In this document: one piece after another, positions 1 through 29,752 of the stretch
How positions within the stretch are numbered: position 1 is the stretch's first letter
Layout: every line of letters begins with the position of its first letter
Assembly (NCBI GenBank): GCA_951406725.2
Contig: OX597815.1
Span: 52,948,001-53,012,000, forward strand
Source: Octopus vulgaris
Taxonomy: Eukaryota
Length of the DNA: 64,000 nucleotides
Reading direction: 5' to 3'
Notes under the pieces: generated by a model
Told to the model about the DNA's origin: nothing
The model's database searches: none
What the model saw: the letters and a program-made list of their open reading frames with translations, nothing else
Position numbers and translations under genes: made by a program

Positions 1-544
1 CACTTCCTTTCGCGACAAGGAAGTGAAATGAATAGATAAATTGCGACCGGAACAACAGACAGACAGACTGTCATATAGATAGATACACAAAGGTATGGAG
101 TGGTAGTTAGGTATAAAGACAAAAAGACAGATAGAAAAAGACAGAGAAAGCGAGATATATAAATTGAGAGAGAGAGAAAGAAGGAGAGAGAGAGAGAAAG
201 CGGGAGAGAGAGAGAGAGAGACTCAGAGAAACACATTGTCAAATACATAGATGGGGAGACGGAGATTGTGATATCAATATCTAATGCTAAATAAGGAATA
301 CTGACAGATATTTATGGGCATTTTGAGCTGCCGAGATGGATGTGGCAAGTCGCTAAAAGAGATTTTATGTGTGTGTGCGTGTACATATACTTTTTAGACT
401 CATATTCTTTAACTGGTATAACTGGACTGCAGCCAATATGGTCATTGCTTGAAGGCTGTAAACATCATGTAATTATATTAAGCATAAATATATATTTTGT
501 GAAATTTCTATAGCATTACAGTATGTAAAGATTTATAAGTTAAT

Positions 545-8367: not shown

Positions 8368-8412
<45 letters not shown>

Positions 8413-8417
8413 TACCT

Positions 8418-9505
8418 GGAGAGGGACAGCTGAAGGGGAATTTTCCTTGTATTGTTTGTCTTGTACTCTGTTTCTTCGTTGGAGAGGGACAGCTGAAGGG
8501 GAATTTTCCTTGTATTGTTTGTCTTGTACTCTGTTTTTTCGTTGTTAAAAAAAGTCCGTTTCCATGTTTGTTTTTACGTTTTCATTTCTCGTTGAGTTCT
8601 ACGTCTATTTGTGGTGTCCTGTACTCACATATATATATATTTATATATGCATGTATATATACATGTAGATGTAGGTACGTACATATATGTATGTATGTAT
8701 GCATATATTTTATTTATTAATTTATTGCATGACTGAGCGCCCCCGCGTCGTTTCGATTCTTTTCTGTTCTCCAAGTAAGTTTTTATATATAATTATGACG
8801 CGAAACTCTGTAACCCTTTGCTTGACCTTCCCTTCCTTCCTGTTTGTCTTCCTCTTTGCCTGTCTCTCTCCTTCTTATTTTCACCCTTTCTGGTTTCCTT
8901 TCCTCTCTCTATCTCTCTCTCTCTCACTCCTCCTCATCTCTCACACAGCCGAGTCGACCACTTCCTTTCGCTGGCGGCCTCCTACAAGTGAACATGCTTT
9001 TTTCCTGCGCTCTTGAAAAAAGGCCCTCAATGTTTGTTTCCTTGTCCTGTTTTTATTCTTTACTTGTACTGTATTCTTTTGTTTTGTATTTTTATTTTGT
9101 ATTTGTTTTTTTATTTGTATTGTTTTTACGTCCTGTTTTTGTCACATTTTTTCCTTTCCTTGTTTTTACCCCTCTGCAAAGGAATTTTATTTAATTCTTT
9201 CGCAGGAAGGGCTAGTTCGACGAGTCGTGTTCTGTCCTTACCTTCGAAACACGCATGGAGTCGAACTAGGTACAGCTGATGAAGGGGAATTTTCCTTGTA
9301 TTGTTTGTCTTGTACTCTGCTTTTTCGTTGTTAAAAAAAGTCCGTTTCCATGTTTGTTTTTACGTTTTCGTTTCTCGTTGAGTTCTACGTCTATTTGTGG
9401 TGTCCTGTACTCACATATATATATTTATATATGCATGTATATATACATGTAGATGTAGGTACGTACATATATGTATGTATGTATATATTTTATTTATTAA
9501 TTTAT
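8418..9505 (+). mobile_element. Non-coding element with ~235-bp direct repeats (8489-8725 and 9272-9505) inside (TA)n, plus a ~63-bp tandem duplication at its 5' end
   Basis: Near-identical acagctga(tga)aggggaattttccttgtattgtttgtc...tatttattaatttat at both positions; ggagagggacagctgaagggg...ttcgtt duplicated at 8418 and 8481; (TA)n on both flanks. Confidence 0.8.
9193..9291 (+). ncRNA. Candidate non-circularly permuted hammerhead ribozyme with kink-turn (copy 1)
   Basis: GAAA 9246-9249, CUGAUGA 9276-9282, GUU triplet 9229-9231. Helices 9226-30/9249-53, 9232-37/9270-75, 9206-10/9241-45, 9212-21/9260-69 and 9193-9200/9284-91. Confidence 0.7.
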
Positions 9506-9582
9506 ATATATATATATATATCGCCATGATAGATCGCTAGCCACTACACATTTATTTCCTCTCCTTGTGTCTTTCTGTGATC

Positions 9583-12333: not shown

Positions 12334-14015
12334 CAGGAGTGGCTGTGTGGTAAGAAGCTTGCTTCCCGCGCATGCGTCGCTCTATTCGCTGTGTTAATTT
12401 TTGACGAGTCGGATGGAATTTTTTGTGCTACTTGGCAGCGGTTTGTCAGTGAATATTATACCGGTAGAAAAATGTATTCAGACCTTAGCGAGTATGAGCT
12501 GCCTTCGGCGGAAGAGGAGCTTGATAAGGCGATAAATAGAATGGACGAGTATTTGGAAAGAGTAAAGAGTTTTGTGAGGCTGCAGAGGTGAAGAAAAGGG
12601 AGATGGACCTAGCCGGATTGAAGGAGCTGAGTAAGATGACACAGAAGGTGGGCGATGACATAAAGGTATTACCGCCAAAAGGGTTATGAAAAATATGGGA
12701 AAGAAGGTCATTACCTACAATGTGTACTCAGTGGAGAGTAGGAAGATGGAGCAGATGGTGATGGAAAAAGTAGAAAAAGCATTGAAGGGGATTTCGAAGG
12801 AGATGACATATATAGCGAAAGAAAATGGATATGGGACGGTGGTTGTCCAGTTTAGGACAGCGAGAGAGGCAAAGAAACTGGTAAGTGCAACTATAACAAC
12901 GGAGGAAGTGGTACTTCTACCCACGTACCTGGGAAGAAAGACTTCTAAGGTGAGGATAGAAGGGATTCCACCCGATATAGAAGTGGTTTGGGTTGCGGCA
13001 GCCGTCCTCGTTGGAAGTGAGGTGGAGATGGCTGCCCTTCAAGCCACGGAAACAGAGGACGAAGGATGGAGAGGAAAATACTGGACCTCATTATACAAGC
13101 AGGGGAGAGGTGATTGATGAGTTTAGCGGAGACGGTGACGTTGGGAGAGATTGTGTTAAGAGTGTGGGTGGAGGGCAGAATCCAACGATGTTTAAATGTG
13201 GCCAAAAGAGCTACATTAGAGCGCATTGCCATCTGCAAAGGAAAACGACAGAAGAAGCGGTGGTGGAGACGGAGGAGAAAAAGGAAGAAGTGCAGATAGT
13301 GACAGAATAAAAAGAAAAAGAGAAAGAAGAGGAAGAACAGTCAGTGTGATGTGGGACCCCAGATCAAAGCCATCCCACCCAAGACCACTCAGACCCACCC
13401 TCCTCATACAGACACCAAACCCACCCACCCCTTCACCCCCACAGGAAAAAAGAAGAAAGAACAGACACCACAAAATTTCCAAGACCCCTCCCCGGTGAAA
13501 AAGGTTACGTGTACATGGAGGAGAGAGTGTTGTCACTCAGCGATGGGGAAAACGGTAAACGAAAGTTTAAATCAAAATCTAAGTGGCGAGTGGTGTTACT
13601 CATTGTGGGGGTGAATAACACACTTTTCATATTCTTATTTCTCAAGTTATCATTCATGTATCATTATTTTAATATTTTGATTTTAATGTTTTTCGTGTTC
13701 ATTTTCATGTGTCATTCATAGCATCATATTTTATTTTTGTTATATGTCTCCACATATGTTGTAGTGTCCGCCTCTATGTAATGCCTTTATGGCAATTTAA
13801 AAGAAATAAAGAAGCTTGCTTACCAACCACATGGTTCCGGGTTCAGTCCCACTGCGTGGTACGTTGGGCAAGTGTCTTCTACTATAACTTCGAGTCGACC
13901 AAAGCCTTCTGAGTGAATTTGGTAAATCCTGGTGTTGAATTGTTCAACTAAAAGCGGTGCTCCAGCATGGCCACAGTCAAATGACTGAAACAAGTAAAAA
14001 AGTAAAAGAGTAAAA
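12334..14015 (+). mobile_element. SINE family B copy split by an insertion (12334-12367 and 13809-14015)
   Basis: Head caggagtggctgtgtggtaagaagcttgctt resumes at 13809 as aagaagcttgcttaccaaccacatggttccgggttcagtccc, as in the uninterrupted heads at 31606 and 35378. Confidence 0.8.
12368..13808 (+). mobile_element. ORF1-only Tx1/L1-like non-autonomous retroelement with target-site duplication
   Basis: ORF1-like peptides (12686..13117 ...VVLLPTYLGRKTSKVRIEGIPPDI; RVWVEGR; degenerate knuckle FKCGQKSYIRAHC). No endonuclease or RT. A-rich 3' end. aagaagcttgctt is duplicated at 12352-12364 and 13809-13821. Confidence 0.7.
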
Positions 14016-14075: not shown

Positions 14076-15932
14076 AGCTAGATAGAAACATTGTTTAATT
14101 GAGATTAAGCTGCGTCGTTTTTAAAAACAGATTTTTTCACAAAGTTTGGCTGTTGTTTCTAACAGTTTGAACACCTTCTTAGTGTCTCCTCATTGGCTCG
14201 CTCTTAGATTGCATATGGATATCATATGCTCTTTCCCCAATTCAAGTTATTTATTAGTTATATTTGTTTCACTCAGTAATGAAGCCTCTGCTCCCACCAC
14301 CACCACTACCACAACCTTCATGAATTTAATCATGGAGAAACCTGTCTCCAAAGTAACAGACTTACAGTAGCACCTACCAAATTCGCCGTCTCCATTCATG
14401 TCAGCGACCAAAGAGAATAACAGAAACATACACCACATGCACTAAATAGCAAAATACTAGTAATTATATACAGCGATACTGCAATATTAACAGCAAATAG
14501 AAAACATGGTAAACGAAGAAAAACAGCGCACGGTAAGGCTCCGCACTTGGTCAAATATTAAGCATCAATAACATTAGTGTACGATACGAACAATTAATTC
14601 ATTTGCTCTACACCCGTCCTTCAGCGGCCTATAATCTCTGCAAACTACTAAATTAATCTAGTAGGAAGTCTTTATGGGGTTATTTGATTTATTAGAAATA
14701 GCAACCAATTTTCTCTCAAATCACACTCGATTGTTTTTAAAAATAAAGGATGTGAAAAGGGTGTGCAGTTACGGATATAACACCTTTCATTACACTATGT
14801 AAGAAATTAAATTTTTGTTTTTTTTCACTTAGGTCACTAAGTGTTATTTCCTATTTGCTTCTATCTAGAAATCAAAGAAAATGACTACTATTCCTTTCAA
14901 ACTTTACCTTTGTGACCTGGGCATCAACATTTTGGAACTGACTTATTTTCCATTTCATTTCTGAAAGATTCAGCACTGAGTTGCTGAAGCAGAAATATTT
15001 TTATAACAAATATTCTGCTCAATACCACAGAATTGCTTGTCAGTTGCTTGACTTTAACAACTTCAGCATGTTCCTTAGTGGCTCAGAACTTGAGCATCTC
15101 TGGTCATGAGCAGGAGTAATAGTGGGGGAGTATCATAGCCATGAGTTGAGAAGGATTCTTTGGGGCCTGAATATATATAAAAAAAAGAAGTTTGAAGGAA
15201 ATAACCATTTTTCATATTTTCTAGGGGTAAACAGATCGAAATAACAGTTGCTACCCAATGACAAAAATTGTGTTACATAGCGTCATAGATTTGGCTTACA
15301 CATCGACACACAGTCAGGACTACATGACAACTGACCAAATTAACTGTAGTTGTCGGGAGCAACATCATCATACTCAACAACAACAACACCAATAACAACA
15401 TTCAATAATGCGAGTCAAAGAGAAATTGTAATATGGCTACATGATTTGCTAGAAATAGCAGCCAGATCACCCTGAAATTTTACCTTACCGTATTAAAACG
15501 AAAGACGTGTTGGGTAATGTAATTCGAAATGTGCCGTACCACAAAAGTAGATGTAATGATCATGGCTGGAATGGTTTTGATCATAGATCTACTCAAACCG
15601 AGCCAATTTGAAGTTAAACAAGACACTTAAACTAACGAATGAAGCACCTGATTATTCACTCACTCACTCACTCACTCACTCACTCACTCACTCACTCACT
15701 CACTCACTCACTCATTCACTCACTCTCCCCTCTCTCATTCACTCAGTAATGGGTCAATCAATCAAGAAATCATTAGCTAGTATGACTGATAGAACTTTCG
15801 GGATGTTGTCTAAGAAAATATATGGAAGACACGCGAGAAGTTAACCATCAAAACCTCCTAACGTAATGACGGGAACAATTAGTCAATCCATTGATCATCA
15901 ATCACTGACTCTTTCAATCATCTAATAAGTTA

Positions 15933-16510
15933 AGGCGGCGAGCTGGCAGAAACGTTAGCACGCCGGGCGAAATGCTTAGCAGTATTTCGTCTGTCGTTAC
16001 GTTCAAATTCCGCCGAGGTCGACTTTGCCTTTCATCCTTTCGGGGTCTATAAATTAAGTACCAGTTACGCACTGGCGTCGAAATAATCGACTTAATCCGT
16101 CTGCCTGTCCTCGTTTGTCTCCTCTATGTTTAGCCCCTTGTGGGTAGTAAAGAAATAGGTATTTCGTCTGCCGCTACGTTCTGAGTTCAAATTCCGCCGA
16201 GGTCGACTTTGCCTTTCATCCTTTCGGGATCGATTAAATAAGTACCAGTTACGCACTGGGGTTGATATAATCGACTGAATCCGTTTGTCTGTCCTTGTTT
16301 GTCCTCTCTGTGATTAGCCCCCTGTGGGTAGTAAAGAAATAGGTATTTCGTCTGTCTTTACATTCTGAGTTCAAATTCTGCCGAGGTCGACTTTGCCTGT
16401 CATCCTTCCGGGTTCGATGAATTAAGTATCAGTTGCGTACTGGGGTCGATCAAATCGATTGGCCCCCTCCCCTCAAATTTCAGGTCTTGTGCCTAGACTT
16501 GAAAAGAATC
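15933..16510 (+). mobile_element. SINE family A with one tRNA-like head and three tandem ~180-bp body units
   Basis: Head ggcggcgagctggcagaaacgttagcacgccgggcg; unit gtatttcgtctg...ccgaggtcgactttgcctttcatcctttcggg...agtaccagtt starts at ~15982, ~16159 and ~16343. Confidence 0.85.
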
Positions 16511-19249: not shown

Positions 19250-20209
<960 letters not shown>

Positions 20210-20321
20210 ATACAAAATGGTACAAGAACGCAAAACATCCAGACAGTTAGGTGATACAAAAAAAGGGCACAACAAAGCATCCAGATAGAAGATACAAAGA
20301 AAACAAGGACGGGTCATTCGG

Positions 20322-20416
20322 AGTTTTCTTTCCTCAGTCGAGTTCCAGATTATCTTTGCAATTTCGGCTGGTTATACTCGAGATTGCTCCAATCTGGCCA
20401 GCCCCAAGGGAAAACT
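20322..20416 (-). ncRNA. Candidate non-circularly permuted hammerhead ribozyme with kink-turn (copy 2), in a non-coding repeat ~20210-20597 abutting (TA)n
   Basis: Minus strand: AGUUUUC CCUUGG GGCUGG CCAGAUU GGA GCAAU C UCGAGU AUAA CCAGCC GAAA UUGC AAAGAU AAUCUGG A ACUCGA CUGAGGA AA GAAAACU. All five helices are Watson-Crick. Confidence 0.75.
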
Positions 20417-21144
20417 AAGCTAAGAGCATTAGATTCCTTTGAAGAAAGCAGCGAATATATACGAAAACAAGGACTGAAAAAAAACGGAGAATGTTACACA
20501 AATACAAAGAACAGGACATAACAACAGGTGTCTTTCGACTAAGGACGAATTAAATTAAGTTGGCGTGTGTGGAAGTAAAGCGTTACGGCAGGGGTACTAT
20601 TTAGTCATTTTATATGTAAATTTGAAGCAGTGAAGGAAGGAATAGTTGACAATATAGAAGCATAATACCTTTCTTAATACATACAACATAACTGCTCATT
20701 AACGCTTTCGTTATCATACCTATAGCTCATCTCGTGAATGGAAAAATGCCTTGTCCTATCTACCGAATACGCAGAAACTGAACTTAAAGTTCTAGCAAGT
20801 CTTTGTAAGTAATTCTTCATTGAGAAGTAACGTTAGAAACAAAATATGATAGATTAAAAGCATAGAAACCAAAAGACTGTTAAAGTACAATTACGTTTAT
20901 CAACAGTTCTTGTCATGGTGAAAATTTGTAGAACACTTCAGTACCTCACTCTGTGTGTCTGCTTGTGTGTGGGTGTGTGTGCTTGTGTGGGCGTGTGCTT
21001 GTGTGTGTTTATTCCTGGATGAATTTGGAGATGTATGCCAACTATATCTGAGATTAGTTGAAAGATTGCACAATTGTTTTTGGACAACAGTCAAATATCG
21101 ACGTGTGAGCACGTACGCACAACCACAACACACACACACATACA

Positions 21145-28883: not shown

Positions 28884-29092
28884 ATAAGATCGTTAATTTA
28901 AAAATAAAATAACGATTTTATTAAGTGGTCAGTATGGAAAATTATTAAAATTATAAATTAGGGTATCTACGAGATACCACCATGCTGAAAATAGCAGCCA
29001 TGATCTGACTCTAAAACCACCTTAATTGTCCATAAATCAACACGGAGAGAAAACAAAGAGACAAGATGAAACTAGTAAACAATTACTGGATA

Positions 29093-29151
29093 ATTCTAGA
29101 TCCCGGATTTCTAGCTTTGCATTTAAGAATGCTTTGCCTCGTCAGTAGAAT
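29093..29151 (-). ncRNA. Type I hammerhead-like motif (left arm)
   Basis: attcta CTGACGA ggcaaagcattcttaaatgcaaagcta GAAA tccggga TC tagaat. Confidence 0.6.
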
Positions 29152-29238
29152 ACAGACAGAAGAGAAACATAAATACATATATATATAAATACAACGTACG
29201 AATACTTACATATACGAACGTATATATTCTCCGTGTGT

Positions 29239-29297
29239 ATTCTACTGACGAGGCAAAGCATTCCTAAATGCAAAGTCAGAAATCCGGGATCTAGAAT
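29239..29297 (+). ncRNA. Type I hammerhead-like motif (right arm)
   Basis: attcta CTGACGA ggcaaagcattcctaaatgcaaagtca GAAA tccggga TC tagaat; 6-bp stem I, near-palindromic stem III, AUC site. Confidence 0.6.
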
Positions 29298-29752
29298 TAT
29301 CCAGTAATTTTTTACTAGTTTCATCTTGTCTCTTTGTTTTCTCTCCGTGTTGATTTATGGACAATTAAGGTGTTTTTAGAGTCAGATCATGGCTGCTATT
29401 TTCAGCATGGTGGTATCTCGTGGATACAGCAACTGACGATACCGGTTTGACTTTGAATTCCTTTAACAATTCATAATAATGTCTTTCATTCCTCTTAATT
29501 CTACCTCACTTCATCTAATTGCATATATTTTTCGTTACTTTTCATAAAAAAGCCTTTATGTTTTTGATATCCAATAAGCATTTTCGCTTTTTTCTTCTTA
29601 CTTTCCCCATATCTTTTCCACGTGTAGTTTCTATTTTCTTTATGAAACATATTTCTATTATATATATGTATGTATATATGTGTATGTGTGTGTGTGTGTG
29701 TATATATATATATGTGCATATATATGTATATATATATGTATGTATGTATGTA

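Follow-up and report, generated by a model that had tools for sequence, protein, structure and literature searches.

A 123-nt segment on the minus strand of the Octopus vulgaris genome appears to contain a hammerhead core whose blocks follow one another in the non-circular order S-G-C and whose block C is split at A9/G10.1. This order of hammerhead parts appears not to have been described previously. The segment lies in a stretch of 64,000 nt, referred to here as the window (positions 52,948,001 to 53,012,000 of contig OX597815.1, assembly GCA_951406725.2), and window positions are counted from its first letter. Sequence comparison shows the conserved core nucleotides, stems I-III, a helix P4 that connects the distal ends of these three stems (by way of a K-turn in the O. 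vulgaris genome), a four-way junction, and a location immediately 3' of Naiad RT genes. It is very probable that the split-block-C motif is a self-cleaving hammerhead ribozyme that is catalytically active as a family; confidence is somewhat lower for the window copy itself. The original prediction of a selected permuted hammerhead fold, common to several unrelated repeat families, with a cut after AUC and a K-turn, is supported.

The probable split hammerhead in the window

Stems I, II and III, P4, GAAA, CUGAGGA and the AUC triplet are all located on the minus strand, as had been claimed (Table 1). A K-turn had been proposed for the internal loop as well. The K-turn consensus consists of a 3-nt bulge followed by tandem G.A and A.G pairs between two helices, and the site carries this pattern as a 3-nt AAA bulge with G.A, A.G and U.G. 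The K-turn is not a universal feature: families of the O. vulgaris genome have it, and the metagenome copies L161 and L164 do not. Its sequence pattern is found in families B, D, G, A and F and is less regular in C and E.

Table 1. Parts of the motif, its host repeat, and the related family A site in the window
Feature	Positions	Strand	Details
Whole ribozyme-like motif, family B copy	20325..20447	-	123 nt
P0, 5' strand	20442..20447	-	partner is the six bases directly after A9
Hairpin P0b, 38 nt	20404..20441	-	abuts start of stem II; one A.G mismatch at second pair (20440)
Stem II, 5' strand	20398..20403	-	G20403 is G10.1; pairs with 20371-20366, 6 bp
P4, 5' strand, and K-turn GA	20388..20397	-	20397-20390 pairs with 20352-20345
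P4	20390-20397	-	equivalent of the type SGC stem I-II interaction helix
Stem III strand with U16.1 and C17	20382..20387	-	20387-20383 pairs with 20362-20358
Predicted cut after AUC triplet	20382/20381	-	from sequence
Stem I strand 3' of predicted cut (6 nt) and 4-nt linker	20372..20381	-	20381-20376 pairs with 20343-20338
Block G: stem II 3' strand, GAAA, stem III strand	20358..20371	-	
K-turn bulge strand and P4 3' strand	20345..20357	-	
Stem I strand and catalytic CUGAGGA (C3-A9)	20331..20343	-	CUGAGGA is 20337-20331
P0, 3' strand, directly 3' of A9	20325..20330	-	0/5 pairs possible with stem II 3' strand
Host repeat: 5'-truncated family B copy, Penelope-like	20210..20597	-	full unit ~660 nt, no ORF
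(TA)n tract, element 3' end	20118..20209		
Family A motif with same architecture	9169..9287	+	P0 is 9169-9173 with 9283-9287
Family A motif, parts	hairpin 9174-9205; stem II from 9206; CUGAUGA 9276-9282	+	predicted cut 9231/9232
Family A site, context	~8410-9510		partial tandem of ~780-nt units

Several details of the earlier description are revised. The stem I-II linker is 4 nt long (20375-20372) and not 5 nt. The P0 helix drawn originally can be paired on paper, but it consumes bases of the 38-nt hairpin at 20441-20404. It is replaced by a conserved P0 that pairs 20447-20442 with 20330-20325, and because of this redrawing the limits of the motif move from 20322-20416 to 20325-20447. With the other helices held fixed, the four-way form beats the earlier P0 by 6.8 kcal/mol in the window copy and by 14.4 kcal/mol in copy L025. 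The A.G mismatch at 20440 is present in 3 of 31 counted family copies and absent from 22 of them. The earlier description did not include the hairpin, the four-way junction, the kinship with types SGC and CSG, or the host elements (Naiad PLEs and their ORF-less relatives).

How is the interrupted block C closed? The four-way junction was first seen by folding the flank with the core hidden, which revealed a long hairpin directly 5' of stem II and a segment 5' of this P0b hairpin that pairs with the bases directly after A9. A junction search, which lies outside the descriptor used to find the motif, left no base unpaired in B, A, C2, E, F, L161, L162, and L164, and the first P0 pair is U-A, A-U, C-G, or G-C, varying by family. 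The junction was better than at least 96% of shuffles in 10 of 17 rows; more than 10% of shuffles were equally good in 7 of the 17. D, G, F, and three further copies did not reach significance. Folded freely, family A yields exactly P0, the hairpin, P4, and III (z -3.71). In the window copy, the free nested minimum-energy fold keeps P0, and the base of the hairpin pairs with the stem I strand (z -1.46).

A conserved off-switch, in which bases 5' of stem II would pair with the core, beats shuffles in only 1 of 11 representatives (L161) and was rejected as a general feature. In L161 (1150-1250), the 3' arm of the hairpin is also complementary, over 11 bp, to the stem I strand together with CUGAUGA, and it beats 500 of 500 shuffles; this arm is possibly an off-state of that single element.

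Chance and conservation of the core

The descriptor (IIa-P4-IIIb-NH-Ib-IIb-GAAA-IIIa-P4'-Ia-CUGANGA) was written from two window sites. It scores 24 at the 20325-20447 site and 22 at 9276+, and its sole other match in the 64-kb window scores 6.5. As originally stated, the two sites are unrelated in sequence (no BLAST similarity between them) and unlikely to have arisen by chance: 4124 block-wise dinucleotide shuffles (528 Mb) produced no match of at least 24 and two of at least 22, a significance to be read as an upper bound because the descriptor derives from both sites. For the same reason, the blind tests described below weigh more. A further descriptor match, in L050, was set aside as a chance match in low-complexity sequence. 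Seventeen blind stretches of 8-10 kb (L114-L130) held no descriptor match of at least 15, and BLAST found three decayed copies in them. Searches with Rfam returned no gathering matches in the window and no ribozyme family among 56 matches at E up to 1 across 8 loci, and ARAGORN returned no genes in the window.

Conservation was followed in 11 representatives. The first five pairs of stems I-III are formed at 160 of 165 positions, a count that is partly by construction as the representatives are descriptor matches; most of these positions occur with three or four pair types. CUGANGA, GAAA, A15.1-U16.1, and the NUH triplet are present in all 11, position H17 is never G, and G10.1-C11.1 is kept in 10. 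In a hammerhead, A9 is followed within 0-2 nt by the 5' strand of stem II, but here the bases after A9 pair in P0. One viroid hammerhead tolerates an additional nucleotide at this point, directly behind A9. Of the features of type SGC, the motif has the order S, G, C, the short stem I-II linker, and the interaction helix, but its block C is split at A9/G10.1. In other words, the motif would work like type SGC, yet its interrupted block C keeps it out of that class.

Comparison with known hammerheads

The available text of Eckert et al. 2023 (PMC10085705) describes the non-circularly permuted types SGC, CSG, and GCS and assumes that block C cannot be interrupted. Type CSG was described in 2023 from two metagenome sequences. 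The octopus motif resembles type SGC (PMC10085705) in the cyclic S-G-C order, the short stem I-II linker, and the full hammerhead core, and the helix that joins the other ends of stems I/II in that type is P4 of the octopus motif. It differs from type SGC in that its block C is interrupted between A9 and G10.1, with P0 and a hairpin closing the gap. Extra helices and a pseudoknot around a standard core are also known from the pseudoknot (pistol-like) hammerhead (PMC11300833), but in the available account of its crystal structure A9, G10.1, and C11.1 keep the usual short stem and the block order is circular.

Hammerheads of Penelope-like elements (PLEs) and non-LTR retrozymes (PMC6765202, bioRxiv 10.64898/2026.07.22.740005) share with the octopus motif a ribozyme in the pLTR or 3' UTR, tandem and inverted copies, and ORF-less relatives. 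They are type I and often minimal, whereas the octopus motif is a large form with multiple pseudoknots. Neither permuted forms nor cephalopods are described in the available portions of these two sources. Craig et al. 2021 (PMC8557442) describe Naiads as lacking canonical hammerheads and flag Naiad_Ovul as HHR_half_core and Naiad_Bfor, Naiad-3_Chem, and Naiad-2_Movir as HHR_core. These are the same elements; no structure is given in the available parts of that paper, and the structure is resolved in the present analysis. A literature search covering passages of the main text of Eckert 2023 and of further papers turned up neither a description of the split-block-C form nor a precedent for an active hammerhead without an A9-G10.1 link.

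Repeat families carrying the motif

Families A and B are dispersed repeats in the 2.8-Gb O. vulgaris genome. A first look gave 375 candidates for family B and 2362 for family A genome-wide, and exact 16-nt anchors matched 969 (B) and 1854 (A) times compared with 0 and 1 for reversed controls. The units contain no ORF (~660 nt in B, ~780 nt in A). The 3' end of the copies is fixed, ~130 nt beyond the motif and leading into (TA)n, and the 5' end is truncated to varying extents. Neighbouring copies are inverted or in tandem, and a tail corresponding to the start of the unit may be present. The fixed 3' end, truncation, and tandem/inverted layout are those of Penelope-like elements (PMC8557442, as far as its available text goes); the (TA)n insertion, 5' truncation, tandem/inverted copies, and optional tail are common to other PLE clades too. 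Applying the descriptor to the flanks of fetched loci yielded further families C, D (3170 candidates), E (2648), G, and F. The families fall into three groups (A/C/E, B/D/G, and F) without mutual BLAST similarity beyond the core.

Head-to-tail tandems with a spacing of 600-840 nt occur in families A, D, and F (C6:106723344-106725029; L113; L066/L067; window 8410-9510) and, as expected, fit multimeric or circular templates. Elsewhere in the window, an inverted repeat at 28963-29427 has 198-nt arms (96%) with CUGACGA in one arm. It would fit two inverted copies of a different Penelope-like pLTR, perhaps one that carries a minimal hammerhead.

Association with Naiad Penelope-like elements

The Naiad signature (N-terminal GIY-YIG, a DKA motif, and RT in one ORF) was found with family F (L183, L111) and in L162, and not with family B. 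Family F has 200 exact 21-mer matches (control 0) and is nearly identical to published octopus Naiad ends. In L111, 1.1 kb separates family F from an RT on its 5' side (Pfam RVT_1 with E 1.8e-5, short of the curated cut-off), and family F is nearby in ~12 of 30 loci found with the L111 RT; L183 has GIY-YIG and DKA 5' of the same RT.

Independent evidence comes from a blind test in which 10 metagenome contigs were retrieved by RT protein alone. Five of them reach at least 290 nt past the stop codon and are informative. The motif lies within ~300 nt of the stop in three of the five (L161, L162, and L164), with helices that are all different and with 0 of 3000 shuffles in each case, and is absent from the other two. 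In L162 the motif follows an intact Naiad ORF of 914 aa. L167 and L168 have Naiad-type ORFs without the motif after the stop, and L167 shows a different or decayed structured segment ~200-350 nt past it.

The last 330-450 nt of 52 published Naiad consensus sequences (PMC8557442 supplement) were judged by eye. Eight of the 52 ends carry the split form, spanning a ctenophore (Beroe, with a short stem I), cnidarians (Clytia-3, three Acropora, Morbakka-2), and octopus (two ends), and the Euprymna end has a partial split form. Six nematode ends (Naiad-1/2/3_Nbra, Hcon, Hpol, Asuum) are intact type CSG by eye, the Ascaris one having one extra U after A9. The remaining ends were unparsed or showed nothing by eye, apart from ~12 that share a conserved motif (CGi, Sglo, Olur, Tgra, Pmar, Skow-1/2, Pfla-1/2, Chem-1/2, Movir-1), which we take to resemble twister. 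Naiads may therefore swap ribozyme classes, as the twister-like motif stands in for the hammerhead. Bivalve ends (Mgal, Bpla, Mphi, Scon, Mmer) have a separate conserved structured motif, possibly a pistol-like one. The arthropod ends Dst-1..4, Smim, Ptep, and EuTe have a conserved structured motif with CCCCUGACGA within long helices.

The 45 RT loci (L131-L160, L171-L185) and the fetched regions yielded no copy of family A or B linked to an RT. A family A copy in L173 was rejected as an RT-linked end and is read as a separate insertion because it is preceded by a (TA)n tract. A young Penelope-like family (L171-L177, L182) has many near-identical copies with (TA)n ends, an intact 753-aa RT plus C-terminal GIY-YIG ORF, and an upstream ORF of ~370 aa. 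This 753-aa PLE is a candidate helper for the ORF-less families; as an autonomous partner of A/B it was rejected, its 3' UTR being different and without the split-hammerhead motif.

Truncation footprint and RNA-seq at the predicted cut

If the motif cuts, a footprint may be seen in the genome. Truncations were counted in the first 100 listed copies of B and the first 100 of A/C. Copies judged by eye to be full-length were left out (62 of 100 in B and 65 of 100 in A/C), and the 73 other rows were mapped. Seven rows were dropped (four B internal deletions, one anchor-only, one diverged, and one palindromic duplicate), leaving 66 breakpoints, among which that of L199 was placed by eye at -19. Of these 66 breakpoints from the listed B and A/C copies, 22 fall at +2..+8 of the predicted cut, where 5 are expected under uniformity, and no 7-nt window as dense arose in 20,000 simulations. 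None falls at -7..+1, and 30 fall at 0..+13 as opposed to 4 at -14..-1. In family F, breakpoints placed by eye number 9 versus 3 in 14-nt windows. L259 has a 9-nt insert exactly at the predicted cut, and L260, L066, and L067 begin there. The truncation peak is offset 2-8 nt 3' of the predicted cut and coincides in B with a TATA that has microhomology to the target. Roughly two in three copies read through the predicted cut.

Looking for RNA-seq read ends that pile up at the predicted cut had been suggested; no such pile-up is listed in three runs (unstranded, fragmented, 6% of each read), which cover 20306-20700 at 35-55x per mate direction. Reads over a 12.4-kb stretch come mostly from other repeats; SINE-like repeats at window positions 13809-13890 and 15930-16400 exceed 1000x coverage per mate direction. 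According to the available parts of one report (PMC11167929), such a pile-up is likewise absent for the Poseidon hammerhead, though it cleaves with protein; that ribozyme cleaves only with protein and is dispensable for insertion in vitro.

Alternative explanations

The possibility that the helices are chance pairings in a repeat deserves almost no credence. It could draw on the origin of the descriptor in the two window sites, but 528 Mb of shuffles gave nothing at score 24, and it is refuted because the motif was recovered blind behind RT genes of other organisms. Scarcely more probable is an ordinary type SGC whose stem II is built, in cis or across a dimer, from the bases that follow CUGANGA, the upstream strand being incidental. 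The post-A9 bases of families A and C can make up to 4 of the 5 pairs with the 3' strand of stem II, as this would predict, but the first of these pairs is A.C in both, and B, G, D, and E make 0-1 of 5 (0 of 5 in the window copy). With the upstream strand, most reach all 5 pairs, G10.1-C11.1 among them, and the post-A9 bases covary with the P0 strand. A canonical stem II built from the post-A9 bases was accordingly rejected.

Two further alternatives accept the fold. One, which seems improbable, is a conserved element that serves as structure or as a binding site for a protein (the PLE RT or a K-turn-binding protein) and whose hammerhead-like core does not cut or cuts only with a protein. A broken block C, RNA-seq without read-end pile-up, predominant read-through of the predicted cut among genomic copies, and the protein-assisted cleavage reported for Poseidon (PMC11167929, available parts) are what such an element would give. 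It is hard to explain without catalysis, however, why the catalytic nucleotides, G10.1-C11.1, and the NUH rule are kept when the helices all change, and truncations fall sharply 5' of the predicted cut. Rather more credible, although still unlikely, is that the fold is real and that the truncation peak and the Naiad link are side effects, the former of TA microhomology or RT pausing, with A-E independent of Naiads. It bears on the biology alone and is not fully separate from the split-hammerhead explanation favoured here. In line with it, family B has TATA at +5..+8, no RT ORF adjoins A or B among the 45 RT loci and fetched regions, and the sampled Naiad RT copies are decayed in the same genome in which A and D copies are 97-99% alike. 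Against microhomology, family C has a better TA match at -4..0, where it has no breakpoints, while +6/+7 has 8; against independence, A-E match family F in architecture, (TA)n ends, and tandem and inverted layout.

Proposed mechanism and significance

How could a hammerhead without an A9-G10.1 link cut? In the split hammerhead favoured here, a perfect four-way junction of the core, P0, hairpin P0b, and stem II would replace the link. From hammerhead chemistry, stem II would be expected to stack under the A9.G12 pair and P0 on P0b, and G12 together with the 2'-OH of G8 would cut after the NUH triplet, between 20382 and 20381. When successive units are cut, tandem or read-through transcripts could yield RNA of unit length. 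The cleaved halves would stay clamped by P0, II, P4, and III (~25 bp), and therefore the RNA could persist nicked or be re-ligated. Reverse transcription, primed at a (TA)n target, would usually cross the junction of re-ligated or uncut templates and sometimes drop off at the nick. The window copy, being a 5'-truncated insertion of an ORF-less family, must borrow an RT.

A bolder reading, somewhat less likely than not, is that A9/G10.1 is a fourth point at which a hammerhead core may be opened and still be active. The motif would then be an ancient ribozyme that Naiads have from ctenophores to cephalopods, related by circular permutation to the type CSG of nematode Naiads. With its halves clamped, it would cut and re-join retrotransposon RNA into a circular or nicked template, which may explain the tandems, tails, and truncation sites. 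If the split motif is indeed an active hammerhead, the stated rule that block C is never interrupted would be broken, and non-circular permutations would move from rare environmental RNAs to animal genomes with thousands of copies. The published view that Naiads spread without hammerheads would be overturned. The role of ribozymes in Penelope-like retrotransposition would become testable through a genomic footprint and natural variants with or without the K-turn.
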